Positions 1-21,522 of a stretch of DNA of 64,000 nucleotides are shown here, one piece after another. How positions within the stretch are numbered: position 1 is the stretch's first letter; every line of letters starts with the position of its first letter. Both the position numbers and the translations under genes were made by a program. This stretch comes from Candidatus Marinacidobacterium sp. (lineage in GTDB: Bacteria; Acidobacteriota; Vicinamibacteria; Marinacidobacterales; Marinacidobacteraceae), in NCBI GenBank assembly GCA_965243415.1, contig OZ251549.1, forward strand, positions 3,899,802-3,963,801, written 5' to 3'. The notes under the pieces were generated by a model. That model did not search any database. It was given only the letters and a program-made list of their open reading frames with translations, and was not told the DNA's origin.

Positions 1-88
1 CTGCGCGAGTTGAACCGAACGACCGCCCGAAAGACCCTCCCGACAGACCTCACGACCCACTGTCGACGACACCCCAAACCTTGACCTT

Positions 89-148
89 GCCCTCACTGCG
101 TCCCGCGCCCCTCTCGACCGGAGATCGGCGCCTTCCGGTGGTGAGGGC
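89..148 (+). promoter_or_regulatory. Nested inverted repeat in the hicA leader abutting the start codon (candidate operator or SD-sequestering stem-loop)
   Basis: GCCCTCAC (89-96) is the reverse complement of GTGAGGGC (141-148). An inner ACCGGA/TCCGGT pair lies between them. The hicA ATG is at 151. The same element recurs before the second hicA. Confidence 0.4.
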
Positions 149-150
149 CC

Positions 151-387
151 ATGCCGCCTAAGGCCGGAGAAGCCATCGAGATGGTGGAGTTCTACGGCTG
201 GAAGCGGCTGAAGAAGACCCGCGGCAGCCACCGCCAGTTCAAGCACGGCACGAAGAGAGGTAGAGTCTCGGTGCCGGGGCCCCTCCGCAGGGTGTTGAAG
301 TGGGGCACCTGGAAGAGCATCGTGCGCCAAGCCGACCTGCCGAGACGAATCCTCCGGGAGTATCCGACCTGGAAACGCTGGAGATGA
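151..387 (+). CDS. hicA: HicA-family mRNA interferase toxin (copy 1)
   Basis: 78 aa with a YcfA/HicA-like core (GWKRLKKTRGSHRQFKH..GRVSVPG). The stop overlaps the downstream hicB start as ATGA (384-387). Confidence 0.85.
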   Translation: MPPKAGEAIEMVEFYGWKRLKKTRGSHRQFKHGTKRGRVSVPGPLRRVLKWGTWKSIVRQADLPRRILREYPTWKRWR

Positions 388-1463
388 AGCGCGTCTATCC
401 GATCGTCGTGCAACGCGGCCGGACCCTGTACGGCGCGTACGCCCCGGAGGTGCCGGGCACCTTCGCCACGGAGCGGACGCTCCCGGAGGCCCGACGCCGG
501 GTGCGGACGACCATCGCCAGGCACCTCGGGCTGGTCGGTGAGATGGGAGATGAAATCCCGGAGCCGGACCCGAAGGTCGCCCGGGCACTCGCCCGCGCCA
601 CCGACCCCGGGAGCGGGCTCCCGGTGGATCCGGCCATCGAGATCGTCAGCGTCTCGGTCGGGCCGGAAGACGCTCCGCCGGAGGCGCCGCCCGAGCCGGA
701 CCCGGCGCTGCCGGAAGCCGGTCGCAGGCGCCCGTGGAACGAGACCTTCGTCGCCGTGATCGCCGGGACTCCGGGAGACTATGGCGGCGAGGCGTTCGAC
801 CTGCCGGGCTGCGTCAGCGTCGGCGACACCATGGAGGAGATGCGGCGGAACCTGGCCGAGGCCATCTCGCTCCAGGTCCAGGGCATGGTGGACGACGGGC
901 ACCCCCTGCCCGAATGCCGCCTCACCCCCGAAGAGGCGCTGCGGCGGTTCCACGAAGATCCCGACAACGATCCGGCGAATCCCGAGAATGCCGCGGTCGC
1001 GGAACGCGTCACCGTGGAAGTGCGGCCGCCTCGCCCGCAGGCGCAGGTGCTGAACGCCATCTGGAAACAGGCATACGAGGCCGAGGGAACCTTCGAGAAG
1101 GACTGTTTCCTCCCGGCGCCGGTGGCTCCCGGAGAGTCCTGGAACGGGGCCTACGCGGCGGAGATCTTCCAGGTGGACGGGATCTGGCACGGACTGATCC
1201 CGGACCTGGCCCGGTGTCACGAAATCGGACGCACTCGCGAGGAACTGCGACGCAGCCTGCAGACCGCCATCGCCGACCGCCTGCTCGAGGAGGTCGCCTC
1301 CACCGGCGCCATTCCGCTTCCGCGTCGAACCGCGGAAACGGCCAGGGCGCGCCACAATCTCCGTTGGGCCGGCGAAGGGGAGGACGAATTCCCGAACCCG
1401 GACGTCACCTTCGAGATGATCCCGGTGGAGATCGTCGCGCCGGCCGTCGCCTGCGCAAGTTGA
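384..1463 (+). CDS. hicB: HicB-like antitoxin with three tandem HicB_N (UPF0150-type) domains (copy 1)
   Basis: In-frame ATG at 384 within track ORF 300..1463. Three internally repeated segments fit the HicB N-domain pattern: YPIVVQRGRTLYGAYAPEVPGTFATERTLPEARRRV; FVAVIAGTPGDYGGEAFDLPGCVSVGDTMEEMRRNLAEAI; YAAEIFQVDGIWHGLIPDLARCHEIGRTREELRRSL. I see no RHH or HTH tail. Confidence 0.8.
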   Translation: MKRVYPIVVQRGRTLYGAYAPEVPGTFATERTLPEARRRVRTTIARHLGLVGEMGDEIPEPDPKVARALARATDPGSGLPVDPAIEIVSVSVGPEDAPPEAPPEPDPALPEAGRRRPWNETFVAVIAGTPGDYGGEAFDLPGCVSVGDTMEEMRRNLAEAISLQVQGMVDDGHPLPECRLTPEEALRRFHEDPDNDPANPENAAVAERVTVEVRPPRPQAQVLNAIWKQAYEAEGTFEKDCFLPAPVAPGESWNGAYAAEIFQVDGIWHGLIPDLARCHEIGRTREELRRSLQTAIADRLLEEVASTGAIPLPRRTAETARARHNLRWAGEGEDEFPNPDVTFEMIPVEIVAPAVACAS

Positions 1464-1528
1464 GCCGAAAGACCTTCCCGACAGACCTCACGACCAACTG
1501 TCGACGACACACCCAGAACCTTGACCTT

Positions 1529-1588
1529 GCCCTCACTGCGCCCCGCGCCCTTCTCGACCGGAGATCGGCGCCTTCCGGTGGTGAGGGC
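1529..1588 (+). promoter_or_regulatory. Second copy of the hicA-leader inverted repeat
   Basis: GCCCTCAC (1529-1536) pairs with GTGAGGGC (1581-1588), immediately before the hicA ATG at 1591. Conserved with the element at 89-148. Confidence 0.4.
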
Positions 1589-1590
1589 CC

Positions 1591-1821
1591 ATGCCGCCTG
1601 AAGTCTGGCTCGCCATCAAGATCGTGAAGCGCGTCGGATGGAAACACGAGGAGACCACGGGCAGCCATCGACAGTTCGAGCACGACGACAGACCCGGCAA
1701 GGTTACGATTGCCGGTCGTCGCGGCGCGACCATGAAGATCGAGGCTTGGAAAAGTGTCGTGGCGCAGGCCGGTCTCCCGAAATGGATCATCCGCAACTAC
1801 CATCTCTGGAAGCGTCTGTGA
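1591..1821 (+). CDS. hicA: HicA-family toxin (copy 2)
   Basis: 76 aa, GWKHEETTGSHRQFEH..GKVTIAG. The stop TGA (1819-1821) overlaps the hicB ATG at 1821. Confidence 0.85.
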   Translation: MPPEVWLAIKIVKRVGWKHEETTGSHRQFEHDDRPGKVTIAGRRGATMKIEAWKSVVAQAGLPKWIIRNYHLWKRL

Positions 1822-2900
1822 TGAAACGCGCCTACCCGGTCGTGGTCGAACGCGGCCCGACGCTGTACGGCGCGTACGCCACGGAGGTCCCCGGTACCTT
1901 CGTGGTGGCGCGAACGCTCCCGGAGGCGGGGCGCCGGGTGCGGGCGGTCATCGCCCGGCGCCTGCGGTTGGTCGGCGAGATGGGGGATGAGATCCCGGCG
2001 CCGGACCCGAAGGTCGCCCGTGCGCTCGCCCGCGTCACCGACCCCGGGAGCGGGCTCCCGGTGGATCCGGCGTTCCAGATCGTCACCGTCGAAGTCGGGC
2101 CCGAGGACGCTCCTCCGGAGGCGCCGCCCGAGCCGGACCCGGCGCTGCCGGAAGCCGGCCGTTCCAAACCGTGGAACGAGACCTTCGTGGCCGTCCTCGG
2201 GAAGACTCCCCAAAACTACTGCGGCGAAGTCCCCGACCTGCCGGTCTGCCTCAGCGTCGGCGACACCATGGAGGAGTTGCGGCGAAACATGGCCGAAGCG
2301 ATGTCGATGCATGTCCAGAGCATGGTGGACGACGGGGATCCCCTGCCCGAACGCCTCCTCACGCCCGAAGAGGCGCTGCGGCGTTACTACGACGATCCCG
2401 ACACCGATCCCACGAATCCCGAGGACGCCGCGGTCGCGGAGAGAATCACCGTGGAGATCCGGCCACCGCGTCCGCAGGCGCGCGTGCTGAAGGCCGTCCG
2501 GCGGCAGGCGCGCCGGAACGAAAAGAAGTTCGAGAAGGACTGCGCGGCGCGGACTGCGGTCGGTCCCGGGGAATCGTGGAGTGGCGCCTATGCCGCGGAG
2601 ATCTTCCAGGTGGACGGGATCTGGCACGGCCTGATCCCGGACTTGGCCAAGTGTCTCGAAATCGGGCGGACGCGCCGGGAACTCCGGCGCAGACTGCAGG
2701 CCGCCATCGCCGACCGCCTGCTCGAGGAAGTAGCCTCCGCCGGCGCCGTTCCGCTTCCGCGCCGCACCGCGCACACGGCCGCCGCCCGCCATAATCTCGA
2801 CGCGGCCGGTGAAGGCGAGGACGAATTCCCCGACCCGGACTTCACCTTCGAAATGATCCCGGTGGAGATCGTCGCCCCCGCCGTCGCCTGCGCGAGTTGA
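1821..2900 (+). CDS. hicB: Triple-domain HicB-like antitoxin (copy 2)
   Basis: ATG at 1821 is in frame with track ORF 1638..2900. The protein is colinear and highly similar to copy 1 (MKRAYPVVVERGPTLYGAYATEVPGTF...). Confidence 0.8.
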   Translation: MKRAYPVVVERGPTLYGAYATEVPGTFVVARTLPEAGRRVRAVIARRLRLVGEMGDEIPAPDPKVARALARVTDPGSGLPVDPAFQIVTVEVGPEDAPPEAPPEPDPALPEAGRSKPWNETFVAVLGKTPQNYCGEVPDLPVCLSVGDTMEELRRNMAEAMSMHVQSMVDDGDPLPERLLTPEEALRRYYDDPDTDPTNPEDAAVAERITVEIRPPRPQARVLKAVRRQARRNEKKFEKDCAARTAVGPGESWSGAYAAEIFQVDGIWHGLIPDLAKCLEIGRTRRELRRRLQAAIADRLLEEVASAGAVPLPRRTAHTAAARHNLDAAGEGEDEFPDPDFTFEMIPVEIVAPAVACAS

Positions 2901-4048
2901 ACCGAACCATGACCGAACCGGAAGCAGAACCGACCCGAACCGATCCCCCAACCGAGTCGGCCGGCGCGGAATCGGAGCGGCAGGTCTTCGCCTTCGTGGT
3001 GGAAGAGGGGCCGAACGGCTTCGGGGCGTACGCGCCGGACCACCCGGCCTCCTTCGCCACCGGGAGCACCTTCGAGGAGGCGGTCCGCGCCTCGCGGGAT
3101 TCCCTGGCGACCCAACTGCGACTGCTCCACGGGATGGGCGACTACCTCCCGCACGCGGAACCGGAGACCGGGGGGCGTATGGAGCGCGCCGGCCGCACCG
3201 CCGAGGGCGAGGTCACCGACCCGGACCTCCGGATCGTCCTCCGGGAAGTCGGCCCCGAAGACGCGCCGCCGGACGCGCCCTCGCCGCCGCCCGTCGAAGG
3301 ACCGGCGCCGCCGCCGCGTCGGGAGAGTTTCCAGGCAGTCTTCGCCCAAGAGTCCGGTTACTACCTGGGCTACATCCCCGACCTGCCCGGCGGCATGGCC
3401 ATCTCCGACACCCTGGACGAGGCGCGCGAAGACCTGCTGCTCGGCACCACCGAGGGCCTGCAGAGCAAGGTGGACCTGGGCGAGACGATCCCCGAGAAAC
3501 GCCGGACCACGGAGGAGGCGATCACGCACCACTACGGACTCCGGCCGGAGAAGCCCCCTTCGCCCGGGGAATACGCCCCGAGGATCGAGACGGTGACCAT
3601 CGCTCTCAAGCCGCCCCGGGCGGCCGCCCGGATGCTGAAGCAGATGGAAGACGACGCCCTCGAACTCCGGGAGCGGTTCGAGGAAGGCCGCTGCCGCCGC
3701 CGGCCGCTGAAGCCCGGCGCTTCCTGGACCGGCCGTTACGCCGCGGTCTTCGAGCCCGGCGTCTTCTGTCCCACGGCCTATATCCCGGACCTCCCCGCCT
3801 GCTGTGTCGAGGGCGAGAACCGCGCCGAGGTACGGAAGAACCTCCACCGCGCCTTGACCGTCCACCTCTATCGCGCCCTCTCCGACAAGGGGACCTTCCC
3901 CCTGCCCCGCCGCAACCGCGCCCAGGCCCGGGCCCACAAACTGCGGAAGACCGTCGAATACGGCTTCGACCCCGAAGACGACCAGGGCGCCCACGAGACC
4001 GCGATGATCTCCGTCACCCTCCGCGCCCCCCACCCGGACTCCCGGTGA
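2897..4048 (+). CDS. Divergent triple-domain HicB-like protein without a cognate hicA; translationally coupled to hsdS
   Basis: Three HicB_N-like segments: FAFVVEEGPNGFGAYAPDHPASFATGSTFEEA; FQAVFAQESGYYLGYIPDLPGGMAISDTLDEA; YAAVFEPGVFCPTAYIPDLPACCVEGENRAEV. The start may instead be ATG 2909. The stop overlaps the hsdS GTG as GTGA (4045-4048). Confidence 0.7.
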   Translation: MNRTMTEPEAEPTRTDPPTESAGAESERQVFAFVVEEGPNGFGAYAPDHPASFATGSTFEEAVRASRDSLATQLRLLHGMGDYLPHAEPETGGRMERAGRTAEGEVTDPDLRIVLREVGPEDAPPDAPSPPPVEGPAPPPRRESFQAVFAQESGYYLGYIPDLPGGMAISDTLDEAREDLLLGTTEGLQSKVDLGETIPEKRRTTEEAITHHYGLRPEKPPSPGEYAPRIETVTIALKPPRAAARMLKQMEDDALELRERFEEGRCRRRPLKPGASWTGRYAAVFEPGVFCPTAYIPDLPACCVEGENRAEVRKNLHRALTVHLYRALSDKGTFPLPRRNRAQARAHKLRKTVEYGFDPEDDQGAHETAMISVTLRAPHPDSR

Positions 4049-5262
4049 CGCCGCCAGCATCGCGCTCGCTCCCCGAGGGCTGGGCCGTCGTGCCTCTTCG
4101 GAGGATCGCCTTCATCGGTGCAGGCGACCCCGCCCCACAGGACCCTGCCGACTTCGAGAACGGATGCCATCCGTTCGTCCGCACTGCCGATGTCGGCCGG
4201 GTCAAACGCTCCGGGGCCTTCCGCGGAACACGAGATCGCCTCACCGACGACGCTGTCCGCGAGCGACGACTCCGCTGCTGGCCGGCCGGGACGATTTTGG
4301 TCCCGAAGAGCGGCGCATCCACTGCTCTCAACAACCGCGTCCGCCTCGCTGAGCCCGCGTATGTCTCCTCCCATCTCGCTACAGTTCGCGCCCGCCCCGG
4401 AATCCATGAGGCATTTCTCTATCACGCACTCTGCCGTCTCGACGCGAATATGCTGATCGGTAACGCCGGATATCCATCTCTCAGCCTCGCCGAGTTGGGC
4501 TCCGCCCCCGTCCCGCTGCCGCCCCTGCGTGACCAAGAATCCATCTCGTCCGTGCTGCAGTCCGTCGATCACACTACCTTCCACACCGACGCCGTCACAC
4601 GAGCTACAGCTGCCCTTCGCCGCGCCCTGTCGCATCGTGTCCTGCACACCGGGCCAATCTACCGCCCGTCATCTCAGTCGGTGCCCGGAGTCTCCGAACG
4701 CCGCTCTCCCTCGATTGCCTCCACGCTCACCGTCGCCGACGCGCTCCGCCCGTTCCGTTTCAACCGCCGACAACAGGTCCCAAAACGGGCATATCGACCG
4801 AGTGGCACGTGGCCAGTCTACGACCAGAGTCCCAACGTCCCTGCTGCCTTCACCGATGATCCTCACCATGTCCTCCATTCTCGTGAGCCCGTCATTATTT
4901 TCGGCGACCACACAAAGACCTTCAAGTACGTCACCGCGCCGTTTGCTCTCGGAGCCGAAGGAACCAAGCCCTTTCTCGTAAGTCCTGATCTCGACCCGCG
5001 TTACGTCTTCCATGCCCTATTGAGCGTTCGAATTCCGGGAAGCGGCTACAATCGCTACTGGTCATCCCTGGCACGCCAGACACTCCACATTCCATCCCCA
5101 TCCAAGCAACGAGTCATCGCCGATTTCTTCGACTCGGTGGCTGACGCCGTCGAATCGGCAGAGTTCGCCGCGACTGCATCCGATTGTCTCTACAACTCGC
5201 TGCTCAACAGTACGACGCACGGACTGCAGCCAAAAGCCGGGCCCCACCCCGTGGAGTACTGA
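4045..5262 (+). CDS. hsdS: Type I restriction-modification specificity subunit HsdS
   Basis: 405 aa with a two-TRD layout and typical motifs: LPEGWAVVPLRRIA near the N-terminus and a central conserved PLPPLRDQESISSVL. GC is visibly lower than in the neighbours. Confidence 0.85.
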   Translation: MTPPASRSLPEGWAVVPLRRIAFIGAGDPAPQDPADFENGCHPFVRTADVGRVKRSGAFRGTRDRLTDDAVRERRLRCWPAGTILVPKSGASTALNNRVRLAEPAYVSSHLATVRARPGIHEAFLYHALCRLDANMLIGNAGYPSLSLAELGSAPVPLPPLRDQESISSVLQSVDHTTFHTDAVTRATAALRRALSHRVLHTGPIYRPSSQSVPGVSERRSPSIASTLTVADALRPFRFNRRQQVPKRAYRPSGTWPVYDQSPNVPAAFTDDPHHVLHSREPVIIFGDHTKTFKYVTAPFALGAEGTKPFLVSPDLDPRYVFHALLSVRIPGSGYNRYWSSLARQTLHIPSPSKQRVIADFFDSVADAVESAEFAATASDCLYNSLLNSTTHGLQPKAGPHPVEY

Positions 5263-5266
5263 ACAG

Positions 5267-6205
5267 ATGGCTCCGCTGACACACTTCATGAAGATGTACC
5301 GCACAGCGCACTCCGCAATGCTCGCGGCCATCGAGATCTACAACAAGCCAGTCGTTGAGCATCGCGAACAGACATTCTCCATTCTGTTCGTCAACGCATG
5401 GGAGATATTCTTCAAGGCAAGAATCGTCCAGCAGAACGGTAACGACCTGCGATCCATCTATGTCCGTGACAAGGATGGTATCCGCTTTCGCAGAAATCGA
5501 CTGACAGGGGACATTCTCACCATCGACCTCAGCGTTGCGATGGAGCGATCGGTAGCGCCACATGCCGTACAGGCCAACGTCCGAGGTATGACTGGTATAC
5601 GGAATGCTGCTATACACATGGGCACCCTCGCACCAAGTATAAGGACACGGATTCTCCAATTTGGCACGGCCGGCGTTCAATCCTTCGCACGACTGTGCGG
5701 CCGGTGGTTCGGTCAAAGCATGCATGCTCCGTATCTTCTGCCGCTCGGATTTGTGGGGTCAGCGGAGTTGGCTGTCGCGGCCGTCGGCGGAAAACAGAGA
5801 GATTTGCTTCGTTTTCTGGAAGGACTGTGCGATAGTGTCGGCGATGACTGCGACGGGTTCCGGGTATCCATAGCGACTCCTGTCCTCTTGAACCCAAAAA
5901 ACAGTGGCGGTGCGACGATTGGAGTAACCAATGACCCTACTGCGCCGACACTGCGGATGGAGGAAAATGATCTTCTCGATCGTTATTCGTCGACATATGG
6001 GGAGATGGTGGCAGTGTGTAAACGCAGATACTCCGACTTCAAGTGCAACAAGGCCTTCTATGCGATCAAGGCCAGATTCGACAAGGATCCAACGTGCTGC
6101 CTCGAGCGAAAGTTGGACCCGAAACGCGAGAGGGGGATCCTCAAGAGGTTCTACAACGTCGATGCTGTCTTCATCTACTTGGACAAGGCGTACACCGCTT
6201 CGTGA
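5267..6205 (+). CDS. DUF3644-like protein (accessory gene commonly embedded in type I R-M loci)
   Basis: The N-terminal pattern AMLAAIEIYNKP..HREQTFSILFVNAWEIFFKA matches my recollection of DUF3644. It sits between hsdS and hsdR, and its stop overlaps the hsdR GTG (GTGA, 6202-6205). Confidence 0.6.
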   Translation: MAPLTHFMKMYRTAHSAMLAAIEIYNKPVVEHREQTFSILFVNAWEIFFKARIVQQNGNDLRSIYVRDKDGIRFRRNRLTGDILTIDLSVAMERSVAPHAVQANVRGMTGIRNAAIHMGTLAPSIRTRILQFGTAGVQSFARLCGRWFGQSMHAPYLLPLGFVGSAELAVAAVGGKQRDLLRFLEGLCDSVGDDCDGFRVSIATPVLLNPKNSGGATIGVTNDPTAPTLRMEENDLLDRYSSTYGEMVAVCKRRYSDFKCNKAFYAIKARFDKDPTCCLERKLDPKRERGILKRFYNVDAVFIYLDKAYTAS

Positions 6206-9200
6206 CGTCCGTGGAAGCAGCCTACGCGGAGTGCCCAGCGCGGGCTCTCTTGGAGAGTCTCGGCTGGTTGTACCGACCGGGCCTCGGGGATGCGCGGAAT
6301 CGAGACGGCGCGAGGGACTCGCTGCTCGTTGATCGGCTGCGGGAGGCTCTGCTGCGGCTCAACGAGTGGATGACAGAGCACGAGGCCGAGCGGGTTATCT
6401 CGCGGCTGCGGCGCTCGGAGGGGGTCGGGGTCGTGGAGAACCGGCGGGTGCATGAGTGGTTGATCTACGGGATGCCGTTCGACACCGGCGGGGGGAGCGG
6501 GCCCCGAACCCGGAGCGTGCAGTTCTTCGACTTCGAGAACCCCGAGGGCGGGCGGAACGAGTTCGTCGTCACCACCCAGTTCCCGGTTCGCGGCGGTCGG
6601 GACCGGATCATCGCCGACCTGGTGCTGTTCGTGAACGGGATCCCGCTCGTCGTGATGGAAGCGAAATCCCCGACCGTCGGGTCGGGTTGGAAGACCGAGG
6701 CGGTGGACCAACTGCGCCGCTACCAGGGACTCGGGCCGCAGTACCGCGACCGGGGCGCGCCGGACCTCTTCCGCACCAACCTGCTCACCGTCGCCCACTG
6801 CGGCGCGAGGGCGGCGTACGGCGCGGTCGGGGCCGGGGAGGACGCCTACGCCGAGTGGAAGTCGGTCGAACCGCTCACCGACGACGAGGTGCGGGAACGG
6901 TACGGGGTCGAGCCGACCGGGCAGGCCCAACTCATCGTCGGCCTGCTCCACCCCGCCATGGTGCTCGAAGTGCTGCGGGACTTCGTGCTCTACGAACCGC
7001 AGAAAGGCCGGCTGGTCAAGAAACTGCCCCGCTACCAGCAGTACCGGGCGGTGCGGAAGGCCCTCGCGCGAATCCGCTCCGGGGGCCGGCCGGAACAGCG
7101 GGGCGGCGTGATCTGGCATACCCAGGGGTCGGGCAAGTCGCTGACCGCCTTCTGGCTGGCGACGAAACTGCGGCGCGACCCGGCCTTCGGGAACGCCACC
7201 ATCCTGGTCGTCACCGACCGGCGGCAACTGAACCGCCAGATCCGCGACACCTTCGACCGCTGCGGGTTCCCGGCCCCGGAGATGGCCGAGAGCGGCAAAC
7301 ACCTGGCCCGCCTGCTGACGAGCGGCCGCGGGCGCACGGTGATGACCACCATTCAGAAGTTCGACGACGCGGTGCCCGAAGAGGAACGGGCCACCGCCAC
7401 GCTCGATCCCTCCGACGAGGTCGTCGTCATGGTGGACGAGGCGCACCGGACGCAGTACGGGACGCTGGGCGCGATCCTCTCGCAGGCCCTGCCCCGCGCC
7501 GCGCTCATCGGGTTCACCGGTACGCCGATAGACAAAGGGTTCCGGCGCAGCACGATGAAGCGATTCGGTTCGCTCATCGATCGCTACACCATCGAACAGG
7601 CGGTGGAGGACGGCGCCACCGTCGAGATCCGCTACGAAGCGCGGCTGCCGGACCTCGCGGTCGAGGGCCCCCGGACGCTCGACCAGATCTTCGACGCCAT
7701 GTTCGGCAAGGAATCGGAGGAGGTGCAGGAGCAGGCCCGCCGGCGCTACGCGAACAAGGAGACCGTCGCCGAAGCCGACCGACGGATCCAGACGATCGCG
7801 CTCGACATCGCGGAACACTTCAAGACCCGGATCCGCCCCAACGGCTTCAAGGCGCAGGTGGTTGCGCCCGGACGCCGCGCCGCGCTCCGCTATTCGGGGT
7901 ACCTGAACGATTTCGGGATCCCGGCGTACCCGATCATCACCGTGGAACGGGGCGACGGGCCGGAGTTCGACGCCGCCCGTGAAGTGGACGAGGAGCAGAC
8001 CATCGGCGCGTTCAAAGACCCCGAAGGCGAACCGGAGATCCTGGTCGTCGTGGACCGGCTGCTCACCGGTTTCGACGCGCCGGTGGAGCAGGTGCTCTAT
8101 CTCGACCATGTCCTCCGGGACCACAACCTGCTCCAGGCCATCGCCCGGGTGAACCGCCGATTCCGCCATCTCCGGGACGGCGTTTGGACCGAGAAGACCT
8201 ACGGCCTAGTGGTGGACTACTGCGGGGTATCGGGAAACCTGGAGCAGGCGCTCTCCTCGTTCGCCTCGTCCGAGGTGAAGGGCGCGATGCTCGAAACCGA
8301 AGCGGATCCGGCCACGGTCATCGAGGCGGCCGCCGTCCGCGCCGAATCGCATTTCAAGGGACGCGACCCGGGGGATCCCGCCGACGCGGCGCTGGTGTTC
8401 GTCGGCGACGGAGACGACTACGAAGGGAGCCGTTTCCGGGAGGACGCCTTCGAGCGGTTCGAAGCGGACTACCGGGCCTTCGCGCGCCTCATGGACCGTT
8501 TCCTTCCCGATCCACGCGCCCTGCGTTACGCGGACCGGCTGGCGCGGCTCAAGGGGATCCGGGCGTTCGTCCGCGCCCAGTACCTGCGCCGGGACGATGC
8601 GGTGGACTGGGCCGACCTCGGCGCCAAGGTGCGGCGGTTGATAGACGGCCGCATCTCCGCCGAAGTGCGGGAGTTGATGGCGCCGGTCTCCATCCTCGCC
8701 GGGGACTTCGAGGAGCGGATCGCCGCCCTGCCCCACGACGAAGCGCGGGCGTCGGTCATGGAACACGCGATCCGGGCGGAGATCCGCGAACGCCTGCGGG
8801 AGAACCGCGCCTACTACGAGAAGTTGTCCGAGAAACTGGCGCGCATCATCCGGGAACTGCGCGAGCAGGTGATCGAAGCCGCGGAGGCGGTGCGGCGGCT
8901 GCGCGAACTGCGCGCCGAGATGCGGGGGGAGGCCGACAGCGCCCGGGCGCGGGGGCTCTCGCCGCTCGCGTTCTCCATCTTCCGGTTGTTGGAACAGCAG
9001 CCGCCGGCGGCGGAACCGGCGGGGGCGGTCGGCGAGATCGCGGAGGAGGCGAATCCCGACGCGGACGCCGTTCGCTCGCGCGCCGCCGGGAAGATCGCGG
9101 AAGTCGTCGGGAAGTACCGGAAGTTCGTGGACTGGGAGGCGAACGAGGAGGTGCGGCGGCGGATGCGGCGGGAGATCAAGCGGCAACTGCGCGAGGACGG

Positions 9201-9273
9201 CTACGCGGAGATGCATCTCACCCGGCTGGCGGTCCAGGTGGTCGAGATCGCGCGGCGGCAGCCGGACGAGTGA
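6202..9273 (+). CDS. hsdR: Type I restriction enzyme R subunit HsdR (SF2 helicase-nuclease)
   Basis: In-frame GTG at 6202 within track ORF 6043..9273. Motifs present: HTQGSGKS, VVTDRRQL, DEAH box MVDEAHRTQYG, GFTGTPI and a QAIARVNR-type motif VI. Confidence 0.95.
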   Translation: MTSVEAAYAECPARALLESLGWLYRPGLGDARNRDGARDSLLVDRLREALLRLNEWMTEHEAERVISRLRRSEGVGVVENRRVHEWLIYGMPFDTGGGSGPRTRSVQFFDFENPEGGRNEFVVTTQFPVRGGRDRIIADLVLFVNGIPLVVMEAKSPTVGSGWKTEAVDQLRRYQGLGPQYRDRGAPDLFRTNLLTVAHCGARAAYGAVGAGEDAYAEWKSVEPLTDDEVRERYGVEPTGQAQLIVGLLHPAMVLEVLRDFVLYEPQKGRLVKKLPRYQQYRAVRKALARIRSGGRPEQRGGVIWHTQGSGKSLTAFWLATKLRRDPAFGNATILVVTDRRQLNRQIRDTFDRCGFPAPEMAESGKHLARLLTSGRGRTVMTTIQKFDDAVPEEERATATLDPSDEVVVMVDEAHRTQYGTLGAILSQALPRAALIGFTGTPIDKGFRRSTMKRFGSLIDRYTIEQAVEDGATVEIRYEARLPDLAVEGPRTLDQIFDAMFGKESEEVQEQARRRYANKETVAEADRRIQTIALDIAEHFKTRIRPNGFKAQVVAPGRRAALRYSGYLNDFGIPAYPIITVERGDGPEFDAAREVDEEQTIGAFKDPEGEPEILVVVDRLLTGFDAPVEQVLYLDHVLRDHNLLQAIARVNRRFRHLRDGVWTEKTYGLVVDYCGVSGNLEQALSSFASSEVKGAMLETEADPATVIEAAAVRAESHFKGRDPGDPADAALVFVGDGDDYEGSRFREDAFERFEADYRAFARLMDRFLPDPRALRYADRLARLKGIRAFVRAQYLRRDDAVDWADLGAKVRRLIDGRISAEVRELMAPVSILAGDFEERIAALPHDEARASVMEHAIRAEIRERLRENRAYYEKLSEKLARIIRELREQVIEAAEAVRRLRELRAEMRGEADSARARGLSPLAFSIFRLLEQQPPAAEPAGAVGEIAEEANPDADAVRSRAAGKIAEVVGKYRKFVDWEANEEVRRRMRREIKRQLREDGYAEMHLTRLAVQVVEIARRQPDE

Positions 9274-9292: not shown

Positions 9293-10090
9293 GTGACTCC
9301 GGGGGAAGCGGCCGTGGCGGAGTTCGGGGAAGTCCGGTTCGGGGAGACCGCGATCCGGTTCGAGGTGCGCCGCAGCGCCCGGCGGCGGAAGACGGTGCGG
9401 ATCCGCGTCGAGGAGGGGCGGGTGCTGGCCGCGGCGCCGGAGGCGATGGCGACGGAAGAGATCGGGGCGATCGTGCGGCGGCGCGCCGGCTGGATCCGGC
9501 GGCGGCTGGCGGCGCCCGGACCGGAGGCGGAACCGGCGCCGAAGCGGTTCGTGAGCGGGGAGACGCTGCCCTATCTGGGACGGAGCGTGCGGCTGGTGGT
9601 GGAGCGCGGCGGGGCGGACGCGCCGGCGGTGCGGTTCGACCACTGGCGGCTGCGGGTGGCCGTGTCCGACGGTGATGGCGTGGGCGACGGCGGCGGTGGC
9701 GTCGTCGGGGACGCGGGCGGGGAGCGGCGCGAGCGGGTGCGGCGGGCGGTGCTCGACTGGTTCCGGGGGCGCGCCGCCGACCGGGCCCGGGCGAGCGTGG
9801 CGCGCTGGCTGCCGCGGTTCGGCCGGGCGGAGGCGCCGGAGGTCCTGATCCGTGACCAGCGGAAGAGATGGGGGAGTTGCGCGCCGGACGGAGCGCTGCG
9901 GTTCAACTGGCGGGTGGTGATGCTGCCGCCGCGCCTGCTGGACTATGTGGTGGCCCACGAGATCGCGCACTTGGCCGTGCCGAACCACTCCCCGGCGTTC
10001 TGGTCGCACCTGGCGTCGGCGATGCCGGACTGGCGCGAACGGCGGGCGCGGCTGCGGGAGGCGGGCGCGACCCTGCCGTCGCTGTCGTAG
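9293..10090 (+). CDS. YgjP-like zinc metallohydrolase (DUF45 / M48 superfamily), frequent type I R-M companion
   Basis: 265 aa with WGSC...LRFNWR and an HExxH motif (VVAHEIAHLAVPNHSPAFW). It lies directly downstream of hsdR. Confidence 0.85.
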   Translation: MTPGEAAVAEFGEVRFGETAIRFEVRRSARRRKTVRIRVEEGRVLAAAPEAMATEEIGAIVRRRAGWIRRRLAAPGPEAEPAPKRFVSGETLPYLGRSVRLVVERGGADAPAVRFDHWRLRVAVSDGDGVGDGGGGVVGDAGGERRERVRRAVLDWFRGRAADRARASVARWLPRFGRAEAPEVLIRDQRKRWGSCAPDGALRFNWRVVMLPPRLLDYVVAHEIAHLAVPNHSPAFWSHLASAMPDWRERRARLREAGATLPSLS

Positions 10091-10110
10091 CGGAGCGGGG
10101 CGGCGGAACG

Positions 10111-10228
10111 GGTTCGCTCCGTATCGGGTCGATCCGTATCGGCTCGATCCGCGTCGGCTCGATCCCTATCGGGTTCGATCCACATCGGGTCGATCCGCAT
10201 CGGGTCGATCCACATCGGCTCGGTCCGC
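10111..10228. repeat. Eight tandem ~15 bp units (consensus GGSTCGATCCNNATC)
   Basis: Read directly: ggttcgctccgtatc / gggtcgatccgtatc / ggctcgatccgcgtc / ggctcgatccctatc / gggttcgatccacatc / gggtcgatccgcatc / gggtcgatccacatc / ggctcggtccgcc. It shares the TCGATCC core with the following satellite. Confidence 0.9.
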
Positions 10229-10254
10229 CAACGGGTCCACCACCGATGTGCGCA

Positions 10255-11393
10255 GGGTGGTCGATCCGCCGAAGGGTGGTCGATCCGACACAGGGTGGTC
10301 GATCCGCCGAAGGGTGGTCGATCCGCCGAAGGGTGGTCGATCCAGCCCAGGGTGGTCGATCCGTCGGAGGGTGGCCGATCCGCCAGAGGGTGGTCGATCC
10401 GACACAGGGTGGTCGATCCGACACAGGGTGGTCGATCCGACACAGGGTGGTCGATCCGCCGAAGGGTGGTCGATCCGTCGGAGGGTGGCCGATCCGCCGA
10501 AGGGTGGTCGATCCGACACAGGGTGGTCGATCCGACACAGGGTGGTCGATCCGCCGAAGAGTGGTCGATCCGACACAGGGTGGTCGATCCGCCGGAGGGT
10601 GGTCAATACGCCGTAGGGTGGTCGATCCGGCGCAGGGTGGTCGATCCGTCGTAGCGTGGTCGATCCGCCACAGGGTGGTCGATCCGCCGAAGGGTGGTCG
10701 ATCCGCCGGAGGGTGGTCGATCCGCCGCAGGGTGGTCGATCCGCCGCAGGGTGGTCGATCCGCCGGAGGGTGGTCGATCCGCCGCAGGGTGGTCGATCCG
10801 TCGTAGGGTGGTCGATCCGGCGCAGGGTGGTCGATCCAGCCCGGGGTGGTCGATCGGTCGGGGGGTGGTCGATCCGCCACAGGGTGGTCGATCCGCCGAA
10901 GGGTGGTCGATCCGCCACAGGGTGGTCGATCTGCCACAGGGGTCGATCCGCCGGAGGGTGGTCGATCCGCCGCAGGGTGGTCGATCCGTCGGAGGGTGGT
11001 CGATCCGCCGCAGGGTGGTCGATCCGACACAGGGTGGTCGATCCGCCAGAGGGTGGTCAATACCGCCGGAGGGTGGTCAATACGCCGGAGGGTGGTCAAT
11101 ACCGCCGGAGGGTGGTCAATACACCGGAAGGTGGTCAATACGCCGGAGGGTGGTCAATACGCCGTAGGGTGGTCAATACGCCGTAGGGTGGTCGATCCGG
11201 CGCAGGGTGGTCAATCCGCCAGGGTGGTCGATCCGCCGCAGGGTGGTCGATCCGCCGCAGGGTGGTCGATCCGCCGCAGGGTGGTCGATCCGCCGTAGGG
11301 TGGTCGATCCGCCGAAGGGTGGTCGATCCGCCGGACGATGGTCGATCCAACCGGAAGGTGGTCGATCCGCTGAGAGTGGTCGATCCGCCGACA
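10255..11393. repeat. Satellite of about 60 tandem 19 bp units: 13 nt constant core GGTGGTCGATCCG plus 6 variable nt
   Basis: Units such as gggtggtcgatccgccgaa, gggtggtcgatccgacaca and gggtggccgatccgccaga repeat head to tail. A variant block gggtggtcaatacgccgga clusters at about 11050-11180. A 19 bp period is not a multiple of 3, and most units are stop-free in all six frames. This explains the many overlapping track ORFs here. Confidence 0.95.
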
Positions 11394-12016
11394 GCGAAGG
11401 TCGGGGGGCGTTCGAGGGGAGACCCGCGGCGCGGCTCCTTCCGGTCGGGCGGCCGGGGCGACGCCGCGGCCGGGCGGCCGGCCGGAGGCGCGGCGGGCGG
11501 CCGGACGCTCCCGGGCGCGGCTTCGGCGCTGTCGAACGAGGCGGGGCGCGCCGCCGGGGGAGCCGACGCGCGGACGGCGCGAGGGTCGGAAAATCCATGA
11601 CAGGTTTTGTCCGGTGCGCCGCTTACGGTTCTCGCCATGAACCTCCGAGCCCGCCTCCCCGGCGATCCGGCGACCGACGCCGGGAGCGCCCCCCGGCGCT
11701 TTCCGCCCGTGGGGGCTCTCGTCGGCGAGCGTTCCCTCACCGGGTCCCCGGTCTGGCGCCGGGGGGCGGTGGAGCGGGTGCGCGCCTGTCGCCGGCTGGC
11801 GCTGGACTGCGCGGCCGCCCGTCGGAGCGACCGTCCGCCGGGAGACCGACCCGACGGGAGCGCCGCGCCGGAGTACCGCGGCGGGAGCGCCCGAACTTCG
11901 GGAGAAGGATCGAAACCCGAGGGGCCGCACGACCCCGAATCACACGACCCCGAATCGCACGACCCCGAATCGCACGACACCGAACGGATCACGACGGACG
12001 GAGAGGAAGACGACAG

Positions 12017-18337: not shown

Positions 18338-19146
18338 GGCGCGCCCGCCGCCCGGTTCCGCCCGGACCCGGCCCTGGCCCCGGCCCCGGCGGCAGCGGCC
18401 CCGTCCCCGGGAGCGAGCCCGTGCCGGCGGCGGAGCAGGCGCTCCAGCCGGGCCATCTCGCCCCGGTCGGTCTCGTGGTCGTAACCCAACAGATGCAGGT
18501 AGCCGTGGAGAGCCAACACCCGCAGTTCCCGGTCGAGCGTCTGCCCCCGCGCCGCCGCCTGCCGCCGGGCGGTCTCCGCCGATACGGCGAGGTCCCCGAG
18601 ATAGGGCTCTTCCCCGAACCCGGCCGCGCCCGCCGCGGCGCCGACCCCCACCCCTGCGGGCGCCTCCCCGCCGCCCGCACCGTCCGGACTGCCCGGATCA
18701 CCCAGATCGCCCGGATCGTCCCCGGGCTCCGCCGGGAAGGCCAGCACATCGGTCGCCGCGTCCATCCCCCGGAAGCGCCGGTTCAACTCGCGGATCCGCC
18801 GGTCGGAGAGGAGCCGCAGCGTGGCCCCGCGCCGGTCGCCGGGAGCGGCGTCGGCGGCCACCCGCGAAAGGAACGCCGCCAGACCGGCGGAGTCCACCGG
18901 AACCGACCGCTGCCGGTTCTGCACCGAGAACCGCGCGGCAACCGAACCCGACCTGACCGAACCCGACGAACCCGACCCGGCCGAACCCGACCCCGCGCTC
19001 TCGCCCCGCCCCCGCGGAGGCTCCTCCCCGCCGGCCGGCGAGATTCCCGGGGACGCTCCGGCAGAGGCCTCCGGGCCTCCCCCGGCGACCGCTCCCGCCG
19101 ACCCCCCGCCGTTCCCGGTCCCGGCCCGGACCCGCGCCCCGCTCAC
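18334..19146 (-). CDS. ybeY: Endoribonuclease YbeY (rRNA maturation factor); N-terminus uncertain
   Basis: Zinc motif HGYLHLLGYDHE and DVLAFP. GTG 19146 overlaps the upstream stop as GTGA. The first ~60 aa and an internal insert are Gly/Ala/Ser low complexity. An alternative start lies near VAARFSVQNRQ. Confidence 0.85.
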   Translation of the reverse strand: MSGARVRAGTGNGGGSAGAVAGGGPEASAGASPGISPAGGEEPPRGRGESAGSGSAGSGSSGSVRSGSVAARFSVQNRQRSVPVDSAGLAAFLSRVAADAAPGDRRGATLRLLSDRRIRELNRRFRGMDAATDVLAFPAEPGDDPGDLGDPGSPDGAGGGEAPAGVGVGAAAGAAGFGEEPYLGDLAVSAETARRQAAARGQTLDRELRVLALHGYLHLLGYDHETDRGEMARLERLLRRRHGLAPGDGAAAAGAGARAGSGRNRAAGAP

Positions 19147-21500
19147 CCGCCGGCCGCCGCCCCGGCGCCCGCGCCCACCGGCGAGGCCTCCGCTTCCCCG
19201 CCCTCCGCCCGCGCCGCGCCCCGCCGGTCGAAGTCGAACCCCGGATACGACACCCGCCCGTGGTGGATCCCCTGCAGCGTCGACAGGAAACTCGCCCGCA
19301 CCCGGCTCATGTCGCCGAGCGTCAGGTCGCACTCGGTGAGTTGATGGTCCTCCACCAGCGACTCCATGATCCGGTCGATGACCCGCTCCAGTTCCTCGCG
19401 CCCGGGCACCCGGACGCTCCGCGCCGCCGCCTCCACCCCGTCGGCCATCATGATGATCGCCGCCTCCCGGGTCTGCGGTTTGGGCCCGGCGTAGCGGAAG
19501 GCCGCTTCGTCCACCGGCGCCGGCCGCCCTTCCTCCTCCGCCCGCTTCTTCGCCTTCTCGTAGAAGAAGCGGATGAGCCGGGTGCCGTGGTGCTGGGGGA
19601 TCACATCCACGATGTCCTGCGGGAGTTTCATCCGCCGGGCGTACTCGATCCCCTCGGTCACATGGCGGCGGATGATGTCGGCGCTCTCCTCCGGGGTGAG
19701 CGCCTCGTGCGGGGATTCGCCCCGGATGTTCTCGACGAAGTACCCGGCGCGCCGCAGTTTCCCGATGTCGTGGTAGAGCGCGGCGGTGGAACAGAGCGCC
19801 GGATTCGCGCCCACCGCGGCGGCGGCCGACTCGGCCAGAAGACCCACCAGGACGCTGTGCTGGTAGGTCGCCGGAGCCGAGAGCGCCAGGTCCCGCAGCA
19901 GCGGACTGTCCCGGCGGGAGAGTTCCATGAGCCGGTTCTCGCTGGTCCGCTCGAAGACCGCCTCGAACACCGGCAGCGCCAACTGGGTGAGCGCCGCCGA
20001 GAACAGCCCGCCCAGGAACGCCGAAGCCGCTTCCAGGGCCAGCCGGGGGAGTCCCCCGTAACCGCCGCGCAGCAGTTCCATCGCCACCACCAGCGCCATG
20101 CCGACGAGCCCCACCAGCGCCCCCACCCGCAGCGCCCGCACCGGCCGCTCCGAGCGGCGATGGATGAAGACCGCGGCGAAGCCGGTCAGCAGGGCGAAGA
20201 GCCCCACCGTCAGGCTGCCGGTCATGATCGCGACCGAAGCGGCGAAGAGCGCCCCGGTCAGCAGCGCCGAGGAGGTGTTCTCCAGGAGGAGCGTCAGCAG
20301 CGCCGCCGCGGCGAAGGGCGCCGCCCAGACCAGCGCGGTGGGGTCCGAGAACGGCTCCTGCGCCAGTTGCGCCGCCAGCGCGGTCCCGAAGAAGCCCAGC
20401 ACCCGGGCCAGCCCCAGGTGGGTCACGATGATGGCCCCGGCGAAAGCGAAGGCGGAGGCGGCCCAGCGGTCGCCCCGGCGCGCCGGCTGCAGCAGCATCC
20501 GCAGCAGACCGACGAGCACCCCGGCGAAGAGCAGCGCTCCCAGCCCGGCCCAGCCGGAGGCGGTCGGCGAAGAGGCCCGCATCTCCAGCAGTTGCCGGTG
20601 CGCCCGCGGGGTCACTTCGTCGCCGGCGCGGATGAGCGTCCGGCCCCGGAGCACCTGCAGCACCACCGTCTCCACCGACTGGCTGGCCTCGCTGCGGAGC
20701 CGGGTGGTCTCCACTTCGTTCCGCTCCAGGGTCGGGCGGACCAGGGTGGCGGAGAAGCCGGCCAGCGCCCGGCGCCGGTCGGGGGTCAGGTCGGAGAGCG
20801 CCAGCACCTGCAGGTTCGCCGCCTCCCGCGCCTCGCCGACGGAGAGGATGTTCGAGAAGTCGGTGACCACGAAGGTGGTGTCGGCGGCCGGGTCGCGGCG
20901 CTGGACCGGGCGGCCGAGCGCGGCGATCGCCCCCTTCTCGGCCAGGATGTCCCGGGCCAGCACGCTGGCCACCGCGTCGGCGAGGCTCTGCTCCACCTCC
21001 GGCGCGAAGGCCAGCCCCATCAGCAGCGCCAGGCCCTCGGGGTCGGCCTCGGCGTCGAGCAGCCGGAAGAAGGTGTCCGCGAAGGCCGGCTCGGCGGCGG
21101 TCTCGGAGCGCACCGCCTCCCGCCCGAAGGAGAAGGCGGCGGCCAGCCGGGTGCGCACCCCTTCCCCGGCCTGCGGGTCGAAGTCATAGACATCGGGCAC
21201 CATTTCGATGGCTTCGCGGCGGCGCTCCTCGGTGGCGGCGGCGTCCTCGTAGGTGAACCCGCTGGCGGCGCGCACGGTGCGGGGCGCGATCTCCCCCACT
21301 TCGTACACCGGGCTGCGGAGGCCCAGGCCGGGCCAGATGAGCAGGCCCAGGGCGACCGCCAGCAGCGAACCGACGAGCGCGGTGCGGGAGAACAGGTCGT
21401 CCCGCCAGTGCCGCAACTGCTCGCGGATCCGGAGGGAGAACGACCGCCGGGGCGCGGCCTCCCCCCCGGAGCGCCCGCCGGCGAGGTCTTCCCCGACCAC
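19143..21500 (-). CDS. 7TM receptor with intracellular HD/HDIG hydrolase domain (PgpH-like)
   Basis: GTG at 21500 with GGAGG 6-10 nt upstream. Multi-TM central region. HD domain: YQHSVLVG...LYHDIGKL...IPQHHGTRLIRFFYEKAK. It sits between phoH and ybeY, as in the conserved operon. Confidence 0.85.
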   Translation of the reverse strand: MVGEDLAGGRSGGEAAPRRSFSLRIREQLRHWRDDLFSRTALVGSLLAVALGLLIWPGLGLRSPVYEVGEIAPRTVRAASGFTYEDAAATEERRREAIEMVPDVYDFDPQAGEGVRTRLAAAFSFGREAVRSETAAEPAFADTFFRLLDAEADPEGLALLMGLAFAPEVEQSLADAVASVLARDILAEKGAIAALGRPVQRRDPAADTTFVVTDFSNILSVGEAREAANLQVLALSDLTPDRRRALAGFSATLVRPTLERNEVETTRLRSEASQSVETVVLQVLRGRTLIRAGDEVTPRAHRQLLEMRASSPTASGWAGLGALLFAGVLVGLLRMLLQPARRGDRWAASAFAFAGAIIVTHLGLARVLGFFGTALAAQLAQEPFSDPTALVWAAPFAAAALLTLLLENTSSALLTGALFAASVAIMTGSLTVGLFALLTGFAAVFIHRRSERPVRALRVGALVGLVGMALVVAMELLRGGYGGLPRLALEAASAFLGGLFSAALTQLALPVFEAVFERTSENRLMELSRRDSPLLRDLALSAPATYQHSVLVGLLAESAAAAVGANPALCSTAALYHDIGKLRRAGYFVENIRGESPHEALTPEESADIIRRHVTEGIEYARRMKLPQDIVDVIPQHHGTRLIRFFYEKAKKRAEEEGRPAPVDEAAFRYAGPKPQTREAAIIMMADGVEAAARSVRVPGREELERVIDRIMESLVEDHQLTECDLTLGDMSRVRASFLSTLQGIHHGRVSYPGFDFDRRGAARAEGGEAEASPVGAGAGAAAGG

Positions 21501-21522
21501 GGTTCCCGATCCTCCCCGCCGC

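Follow-up and report, generated by a model that had tools for sequence, protein, structure and literature searches.

A hypervariable array of hicA genes and triple-domain hicB genes in the type I restriction-modification operon of an uncultured acidobacterial lineage

HicAB modules are among the most widespread toxin-antitoxin families. In the canonical representatives (E. coli K-12, B. pseudomallei and Y. pestis HicA3B3; classes 3 and 4 of Gerdes) the toxin gene comes first and overlaps the antitoxin gene, HicA carries a G-S-H motif, and HicB joins a single N-domain with a partial RNase H fold, the HicA binder, to a helix-turn-helix (HTH) or ribbon-helix-helix (RHH) domain (PMC10865869). Helix alpha1 of HicB packs against the sheet of HicA, and this does not depend on the DNA-binding domain; HicB is degraded by Lon, and the E. 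coli hicAB P2 transcript yields HicB but not HicA (PMC10865869). Here we describe an array of hicA genes in a 64,000-nucleotide (nt) stretch of the Candidatus Marinacidobacterium sp. genome (contig OZ251549.1, positions 3,899,802 to 3,963,801; hereafter the window), in which the partner proteins are each made of three HicB N-type domains and are named HicB3x. Like the canonical modules, its units are toxin-first with overlapping genes, and they carry both the G-S-H motif in HicA and the partial RNase H fold in the antitoxin. They differ in that HicB3x has three N-domains instead of one and neither an HTH nor an RHH domain, so that operator binding and conditional co-operativity are not expected, and in that 3–6 units are arrayed, many copies being toxin-less.

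Several described variants share part of this organisation. Class 1 modules have the same hicA-hicB order and an antitoxin without DNA-binding domain (PMC10865869), but their HicB is small (67–97 amino acids, aa), whereas HicB3x proteins have 359–383 aa and three domains. Duplicated HicB-clan domains are found in class 7, where a HicB of 216–233 aa carries two DUF1902 domains but the gene order, hicBA, is opposite to the one observed here; class 8 has three unrelated domains, and none of the 14 classes recognised in that survey of HicA contexts consists of hicA followed by a triple-HicB antitoxin (PMC10865869). The nearest architectural relatives are two-domain HicB_N proteins (147–237 aa), with two PF15919 stretches and no DNA-binding domain. 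As for genomic position, the gene of the latent RNase PrrC lies inside the hsd operon of the EcoprrI type I restriction-modification (R-M) system, and PrrC was proposed to be a back-up which stops translation when restriction fails (PMC3506569). PrrC is an ABC-ATPase-HEPN protein silenced by the Hsd complex, whereas the present toxin is HicA with a dedicated protein antitoxin, for which coupling to Hsd is only proposed. Neither an ABC-ATPase N-domain nor a HEPN domain was found here, only HicA and HicB domains, and the likeness is one of position and proposed logic. Finally, the hicAB loci of ANME-1 archaea are, as here, multi-copy, richer in hicB than in hicA, rapidly rearranging and collinear with hsdM, and hicAB hot spots lie near hsdM (PMC13385816). 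However, ANME-1 HicB proteins are not described as triple-domain, their copies do not form one array in one hsd operon, and the hosts belong to another domain of life.

The HicB3x array is restricted to one uncultured acidobacterial lineage. A GTDB scan of 185,579 representative genomes gave one true relative, in a metagenome-assembled genome of Candidatus Marinacidobacterium sp. (Acidobacteriota, Vicinamibacteria), and a scan of JGI metagenomes gave none. A word-seeded search of 5.8 billion proteins retrieved 46 relatives, all of 348–463 aa. In an exhaustive HMMER search with the family profile, full-length matches fell into only 3 clusters (50% identity) among 1.84 billion representatives; the remaining hits were HicB proteins with one or two domains, none longer than 258 aa, and matched the middle domain best. 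Multi-HicB_N architectures, for which the preliminary description of this DNA had suggested a database search, are found in two grades: two-domain forms, which are widespread in public protein collections, and the triple form, confined to these three clusters. The triple form is thus a rare extension of a known trend, and the locus a new architectural variant of HicAB (triple-domain antitoxins without DNA-binding domain, in a hypervariable array within a type I R-M operon) and not a categorically new system.

The distal part of the array occupies window positions 1–4048, on the + strand, and comprises two hicA-hicB3x units and a third hicB-like gene without hicA, preceded by the last 13 nt of an upstream copy. 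These 13 nt (1–13) encode ...ACAS and a stop codon. Positions 1–20 are 100% identical to 2888–2907, i.e. the end of a hicB3x gene plus 7 nt, and the matching protein P0010, with the C-terminus ...APAVACAS, is the copy whose end opens the window. In the first unit, a leader hairpin (89–148) precedes hicA1 (151–387, 78 aa), whose end overlaps hicB3x-1 (384–1463, 359 aa) in an ATGA stop/start. After a spacer of 127 nt between hicB3x-1 and hicA2, which includes a second leader hairpin (1529–1588), the second unit consists of hicA2 (1591–1821, 76 aa) and hicB3x-2 (1821–2900, 359 aa), with a TGATG overlap and an antitoxin 78% identical to the first. The third gene, hicB3x-3 (2909–4048), codes for 379 aa if read from its ATG (2909) and for 383 aa if translation starts at a TTG at 2897; it has neither hicA nor leader, a search upstream of it for a HicA remnant was negative, and its stop overlaps the GTG start of hsdS (GTGA, 4045–4048). 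Throughout, hicA and hicB3x genes overlap by 1–4 nt, and 4-nt overlaps chain the genes of the locus.

Self-comparison of the window gave a repeat period of 1437 nt, with units 79–85% and leaders 85–94% identical at the nucleotide level, and the third gene is 36–37% identical to copies 1 and 2. The layout given in the preliminary description, namely at least three consecutive units of about 1.44 kb with near-identical leaders, starting on the tail of an earlier copy and ending with a diverged hicB-like gene lacking hicA, was thus confirmed. The same gene order was found at 97.8% nucleotide identity in an independent assembly, L002, where the counterpart of hicB3x-3 (L002 B5) is 99% identical to it. 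GC content is 0.67–0.73 over the array and 0.55 over the following hsdS and DUF3644 genes. An E. coli-type promoter and terminator scan of positions 1–4200 detected no promoter and no + strand terminator. An inverted repeat, CGACAG-N13-CTGTCG, is present at 41–65 and 1479–1503; only the near-identical units have it in common.

The triple-domain nature of HicB3x was assessed by profile and structure comparisons. All three large proteins pass PF15919 (HicB_lk_antitox) in 2–3 separate stretches each, three in the case of hicB3x-3, and each third taken alone matches PF15919 or PF21748 in all three copies. The domains are not equally close to these Pfam models: only the middle domain exceeds the cut-off, and it does so in two of the proteins (copy 1, 39.7 bits; copy 2, 41.9 bits); scores of domain 1 are borderline (26.4 bits for copy 1) and those of domain 3 weak (E 0.003–0.07). 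Homology between the domains (D1, D2 and D3) was nevertheless clear when profiles built from 31 family members were compared by hhalign: D1-D2 aligned with 98.8% probability (E 4e-17), D1-D3 with 96.6% (E 7e-10) and D2-D3 with 99.4% (E 1e-21), over 87–99 columns at 23–29% identity. AlphaFold models of hicB3x-1 (predicted local distance difference test, pLDDT, 89.4; predicted template modelling score, pTM, 0.80) and of the toxin-less hicB3x-3 (pLDDT 88.1, pTM 0.81) showed the same triple fold, with three beta-beta-beta-alpha-alpha-beta units. The best PDB fold matches were all HicB N-domains, from Y. pestis (4p78_A) and B. pseudomallei (6g26, 6g1c), with TMt 0.67–0.80, and from S. pneumoniae (5yrz) and E. 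coli (6hpb_B), each covering about 90 query residues. Against a viral structure library, HicB-like matches were single-domain only and hence gave no evidence of phage origin.

In HicB3x-1, D1 spans aa 1–96, D2 116–214 and D3 244–351. A disordered Pro/Glu-rich linker (aa 93–115) separates D1 from D2, as the preliminary description had it for both junctions; D2 and D3, however, are joined by a conserved RPPRPQA motif and a long helix (218–240). After the final strand of D3 only an 8-aa tail follows, and the conserved C-terminus reads VAPAVACAS. No HTH, RHH or other DNA-binding element was detected in the Pfam scan or in either AlphaFold model. Of the further traits of canonical HicB, adjacency to and overlap with hicA is seen in copies 1 (ATGA) and 2 (TGATG) but not in copy 3. 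Taken together, these results establish that HicB3x consists of three homologous HicB N-type domains of partial RNase H fold in a single chain devoid of a DNA-binding domain. The earlier proposal of three repeated HicB_N-type segments in proteins of about 360–380 aa (here 359, 359 and 379 aa), lacking an RHH or HTH tail, is therefore upheld by Pfam applied to each third, by hhalign and by the structural comparisons.

The small proteins are HicA toxins with an intact catalytic G-S-H motif, as judged by their sequences. HicA1 and HicA2 score 42.1 and 43.4 bits against PF07927, for which the gathering cut-off is 27, and the solved HicA structures from B. pseudomallei, 6g26_E and 4c26_A, are matched at E 3e-6. 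Among 12 HicA proteins of the arrays, G25, H27 and H32 are invariant and S26 is present in 11; H27 aligns with the position changed from His to Ala in the 6g26 chain. The alpha-type HicA proteins (subtypes are defined below), including HicA1, end with a conserved basic/aromatic 14-aa tail, LP(R/K)RIxREYxTWKxWR. HicA1 and HicA2 share only 46% aa identity, compared with 78% between their antitoxins and 79–85% nucleotide identity of the flanking DNA. The difference is visible along the DNA, where the bodies of the hicA genes (204–309 versus 1644–1746) are far more diverged than the leaders and the antitoxins. This local excess of divergence points to replacement of alleles or to diversifying selection acting on the toxin.

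A 60-nt hairpin lies before every intact hicA gene, of both the alpha and the beta type. In the first leader hairpin, GCCCUCACUGC forms the outer stem with GGUGGUGAGGGC, the purine-rich Shine-Dalgarno (SD) region, which ends 2 nt before the hicA1 AUG; within the stem, GCCCUCAC stands opposite GUGAGGGC. The fold has a minimum free energy of -40.2 kcal/mol (z = -3.8), and no Rfam family matches the leader. An element of about 70 nt is conserved ahead of all 13 aligned hicA genes, although the HicA proteins are only 34–73% identical to HicA1. In an exact-pattern search, nearly all intact hicA genes of the loci had one copy of the leader in front of them, the window had two copies, and no others were found; the sole miss, in locus L013, is a variant with a 5-nt deletion in which the stem is kept. 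In the leader alignment 90% of the cells are paired, compared with about 46% in slid controls, and a single pair shows UA/CG/UG alternation. An RNA structure is thus plausible. The SD-overlapping stem-loop of the preliminary description is a real element, conserved before every intact hicA with the potential to sequester its SD, and we infer from this a role in regulation.

Downstream, the array is continuous with type I R-M genes on the same strand. hsdS (4045–5262) encodes a 405-aa specificity subunit with two target-recognition domains (PF01420; PADLOC Specificity_I, E 6e-29). It is followed by a DUF3644 gene (5267–6205; PF12358, E 4e-29), which corresponds to the PADLOC candidate defence gene PDC-S19 (E 2e-70), and by hsdR (6202–9273; HSDR_N, SWI2_SNF2 and T1RH-like_C; PADLOC REase_I, E 2e-129), starting either at the GTG at 6202, in a GTGA overlap with the DUF3644 stop, or at the GTG at 6211. 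To compare this organisation, 15 related loci were fetched (L001–L005 and L009–L017), of which some are duplicate or partial, giving about ten distinct arrays. Wherever the contig reaches, they are found at one and the same place in the chromosome, preceded by FTCD, nrdR, a sigma factor gene and a LiaF-like gene, and have the same order: half-size hsdS, hsdM, array, hsdS or a cassette, hsdR and ygjP. hsdM is directly upstream of the array in L002 and most other relatives, with the exception of L001, where no hsdM was called upstream. In L002, hsdM is followed by a beta-type hicA-hicB3x pair, a toxin-less hicB3x of the P0010 type and then the genes of the window; the upstream part of the window array, hsdM included, is presumably the same, given the near-identity of the two loci. 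In five loci (the window, L009, L011, L013 and L014) there is a 4-nt overlap between the final hicB3x and the gene that follows, which is an unannotated open reading frame (ORF) of 455 aa in L014 and hsdS in the other four. It had been suggested that the orphan third copy was recruited to the R-M operon. That copy does lie in the operon, but it is the whole array, and not the third copy alone, that sits between hsdM and hsdS/hsdR.

The interval between array and hsdR behaves as a swappable cassette (window 4049–6305, L002 13850–15007, L010 14631–15821, L003 15530–15982). The window has hsdS and DUF3644 in this slot, L002 and L010 a CAP12/Pycsar-type TIR protein (PDC-S35), and L003 and L016 a short hsdS with DUF3800. 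Window positions 4049–6305 have no nucleotide match in L002, and hsdR is again 92% identical; more generally the flanks of the cassette are 92–98% identical and the cassette itself is without match. Directly upstream of hsdM, an unannotated gene of 202–223 aa, at 4801–5409 in L002 and at equivalent sites in L003, L009, L010, L011 and L013–L016, encodes an HsdS of half size that has a single target-recognition domain (Specificity_I in PADLOC, E 9e-9). A specificity subunit may therefore be present even in loci without a downstream hsdS.

Among the loci, the arrays hold 3–6 hicB3x genes, corresponding to 9–18 HicB domains, but only 1–3 hicA genes. Three subtypes of hicB3x can be distinguished: alpha, to which copies 1 and 2 belong; beta, with about 42–46% identity to alpha and its own type of HicA; and gamma, represented by copy 3, which has 375–383 aa and is never found with hicA. 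Gamma orthologues are present as intact ORFs in L001, L002 and L010, with 55–99% identity to the window copy. The toxin-less third copy, first viewed as an orphan, is not a one-off but a member of a distinct, conserved paralogue type. Copy number and alleles vary between otherwise near-identical genomes; in L009 and L011, both flanks are 97–98% identical and the array interior cannot be aligned at the nucleotide level. The C-terminus ...VAPA(V/I)ACAS-COOH (e.g. 1437–1463 and 2874–2900) is 93% conserved in alpha and present in beta, and gamma proteins have an APHPDSR-like end in its place. The tail-encoding DNA is 100% identical between copies (1–20 and 2888–2907), and the ACAS-type tail could be a degron or a recombination anchor.

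Variation within alpha-type proteins is concentrated in aa 231–340 (50–66% mean identity), a stretch flanked by conserved anchors: RPPRPQA on one side (92%) and the C-terminal tail on the other (93%). D3 behaves as a cassette: identities over D1/D2/D3 were 99/97/50, 57/57/97 and 55/55/95 in three paralogue pairs. By analogy, variability of D3 between anchors recalls the variable target-recognition domains of HsdS. As for the toxin, a Mantel-type test of HicA against each HicB3x domain does not discriminate, because every domain correlates with HicA identity, and only individual recombinant pairs are informative. In these, HicA identity tracks D1-D2 and not D3: between L001 and L010, HicA is 95% identical, D1 90, D2 95 and D3 66%; between the HicA2 unit of the window and L010, HicA is 51% identical, D1 60, D2 55 and D3 86%.

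Toxin genes have also been lost. The longest family members (423–463 aa) begin with 16–40 N-terminal HicA residues (AIELxEFYGW...), which continue in frame into a complete hicB3x; these genes have no leader and lack the GSH core or the rest of the HicA fold. Such lost-toxin relics are found at L003 10001–11386, L016 10001–11320, L009 6313–7611 and L005 ~9620–11104. An origin by frameshift was considered for them and rejected, since the C-terminal half of HicA was present in no other frame; the remnants are therefore true truncations. From the sequences of these genes and of the toxin-less copies, toxin loss has been repeated across arrays. The antitoxin genes, by contrast with the toxin relics, are kept: all of the approximately 40 hicB3x ORFs examined are full length. 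The ratio of nonsynonymous to synonymous substitutions (dN/dS, by Nei-Gojobori, a rough estimate in a 70% GC genome) is about 0.15–0.65 in informative pairs, toxin-less copies included; the value of 2.07 for the near-identical pair WB1 and L2B3 (dS 0.004) is uninformative. The preliminary description was therefore right about architecture, and it missed the hypervariability, the swapping of D3, the decayed HicA remnants and the narrow taxonomic range.

We consider it probable that the locus is a hypervariable HicAB toxin-antitoxin array which, within a type I R-M operon, serves as an abortive-infection layer backing up restriction. The descriptive part of this statement is close to certain, and for the role in defence the odds are about even. 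HicA would act as an mRNA-cleaving toxin, and the cognate HicB3x would keep it inactive by binding it directly through one HicB domain, most probably in the D1-D2 half, which stays linked to hicA. As they contain no DNA-binding domain, HicB3x proteins should not be able to bind an operator, and transcriptional autoregulation is not expected; we therefore propose that toxin dosage is set after transcription, the leader hairpin limiting translation of hicA. hicB3x would be translated after hicA by translational coupling or re-initiation. Toxin-less copies may supply excess or cross-reactive antitoxin, with a buffering or cross-neutralising effect; HicB homologues cross-neutralise HicA in ANME-1 (PMC13385816). 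A swappable D3 might give each copy a different partner or trigger, and HicA could be released when a phage disturbs expression of the operon or stability of the antitoxin. Because the array is placed inside a defence locus, in the manner of PrrC in EcoprrI, it is most simply viewed as such a second layer of defence. The variable slot next to it also holds PADLOC defence candidates, PDC-S19 (DUF3644) or PDC-S35 (TIR).

Several observations weigh against this scheme. No PADLOC or NCBIfam model matched HicA or HicB3x. The leader shows weak covariation that does not exceed that of shuffles, its sequence being too conserved, and a protein- or DNA-level role for the conserved sequence is possible. 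The linkage of hicA with D1-D2 could be mere adjacency. The association with R-M could likewise reflect a single historical insertion and not functional coupling, since the loci, all from one lineage, are orthologues at a single chromosomal site. Moreover, the excess of HicB domains over hicA genes is beyond the need of a simple toxin-antitoxin pair. The locus adds a class to HicAB, in which a toxin is paired with an antitoxin of three HicB domains without DNA-binding domain. It also offers a natural experiment on the control of toxin dosage in toxin-first modules whose antitoxin lacks DNA-binding capacity (the SD-sequestering hairpin being the candidate), on the purpose of extra antitoxin domains and of toxin-less antitoxins, and on the diversification of R-M-embedded toxin-antitoxin modules, by exchange of single-domain cassettes and by wholesale replacement of alleles between near-identical genomes.

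The array might go further than a back-up and constitute a polymorphic guard module integrated with the type I R-M system, a possibility that we regard as unlikely. D1-D2 would then hold HicA, D3 would sense phage proteins (for example anti-restriction factors) or the state of Hsd, and an attack on restriction would release HicA; the dosage of the toxin and the turnover of the antitoxin would be set by the leader hairpin and the C-terminal ACAS tail. If this were true, trigger specificity in toxin-antitoxin defence would be diversified in a new way, by recombining antitoxin domains inside an array.

Less likely again is that HicB3x proteins serve chiefly as accessories to the type I R-M system, for example in assembly, in restriction control or as guard or sensor, HicA being an occasional passenger and the antitoxin role secondary or lost. 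The location of the family, found only between hsdM and hsdS/hsdR and in 3 clusters among 1.84 billion representatives, would fit such a role, as would the excess of hicB3x over hicA in every array, the 4-nt overlap of the last hicB3x with the next gene in five loci, the intact toxin-less copies with dN/dS <1 and the HsdS-like pattern of D3 variation between conserved anchors. Yet all domains are of HicB type, with HicB antitoxins as best structural matches, and no array seen is without an intact hicA that has the conserved leader and the start/stop overlap with hicB3x. The association itself amounts to one orthologous locus in one lineage.

We give a slightly lower probability to a stoichiometric explanation, in which one HicB3x binds up to three HicA through three equivalent toxin-binding domains, as a 3-in-1 sponge or scaffold. 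Each of the three domains is homologous to the HicA-binding domain of HicB and possesses helix alpha1, and the pTM of 0.80 suggests a defined assembly. This model is disfavoured, however, because 9–18 HicB domains face 1–3 hicA genes per array and because the domains are not equivalent, being 23–29% identical and unequal in conservation and in closeness to canonical HicB; in addition, D3 is exchanged independently of the linked hicA. The idea, present in the preliminary description, that one antitoxin sequesters several HicA molecules is accordingly a poor fit to gene dosage (3–6 hicB3x versus 1–3 hicA).

It is doubtful, more so than for the sponge, that the array is simply a decaying selfish toxin-antitoxin cluster, with toxin-less copies on their way to loss and variability as neutral recombination noise. 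HicA remnants and toxin-less copies are common, and the gamma type, at dN/dS 0.5–0.65, appears to be under relaxed constraint. Nevertheless dN/dS stays below 1, the hicB3x ORFs are all full length, the orphan copy is modelled by AlphaFold with as high confidence as a paired copy, and gamma persists as an intact ORF in three other loci at 55–99% identity. An assembly artefact, by mis-joining or expansion of a single hicAB unit in a metagenome-assembled genome, where repeats are error-prone, can be excluded in practice, because the units differ by 15–21% at the nucleotide level (the HicA proteins being 46% identical) and L002 keeps the order at 97.8% identity in an independent assembly, with about ten further contigs from other samples holding comparable arrays.

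The last conserved gene of the locus encodes a YgjP-like metallopeptidase (9293–10090, + strand; PF01863, E 1e-52). It is directly 3' of hsdR in L001, L002, L003, L009, L011, L013, L014 and L016, and it overlaps or abuts hsdR in several related loci. Just 3' of it, the window contains about 60 tandem copies (87% match) of a 19-nt unit, CGCAGGGTGGTCGATCCGC, at 10251–11390. Repeats also lie at 10109–10237 and 11926–11984, 15-nt repeats adjoin the array, and similar repeats occur in L002 at 19316–19416. As its period is not a multiple of 3, the 19-nt array is non-coding and the long ORFs called over it are probably spurious. Further along, on the - strand (19143–21761), the window encodes a 7TM receptor of 872 aa that carries an HD hydrolase domain on the intracellular side (7TMR-HDED, 7TM-7TMR_HD and HD) and is unrelated to the array.

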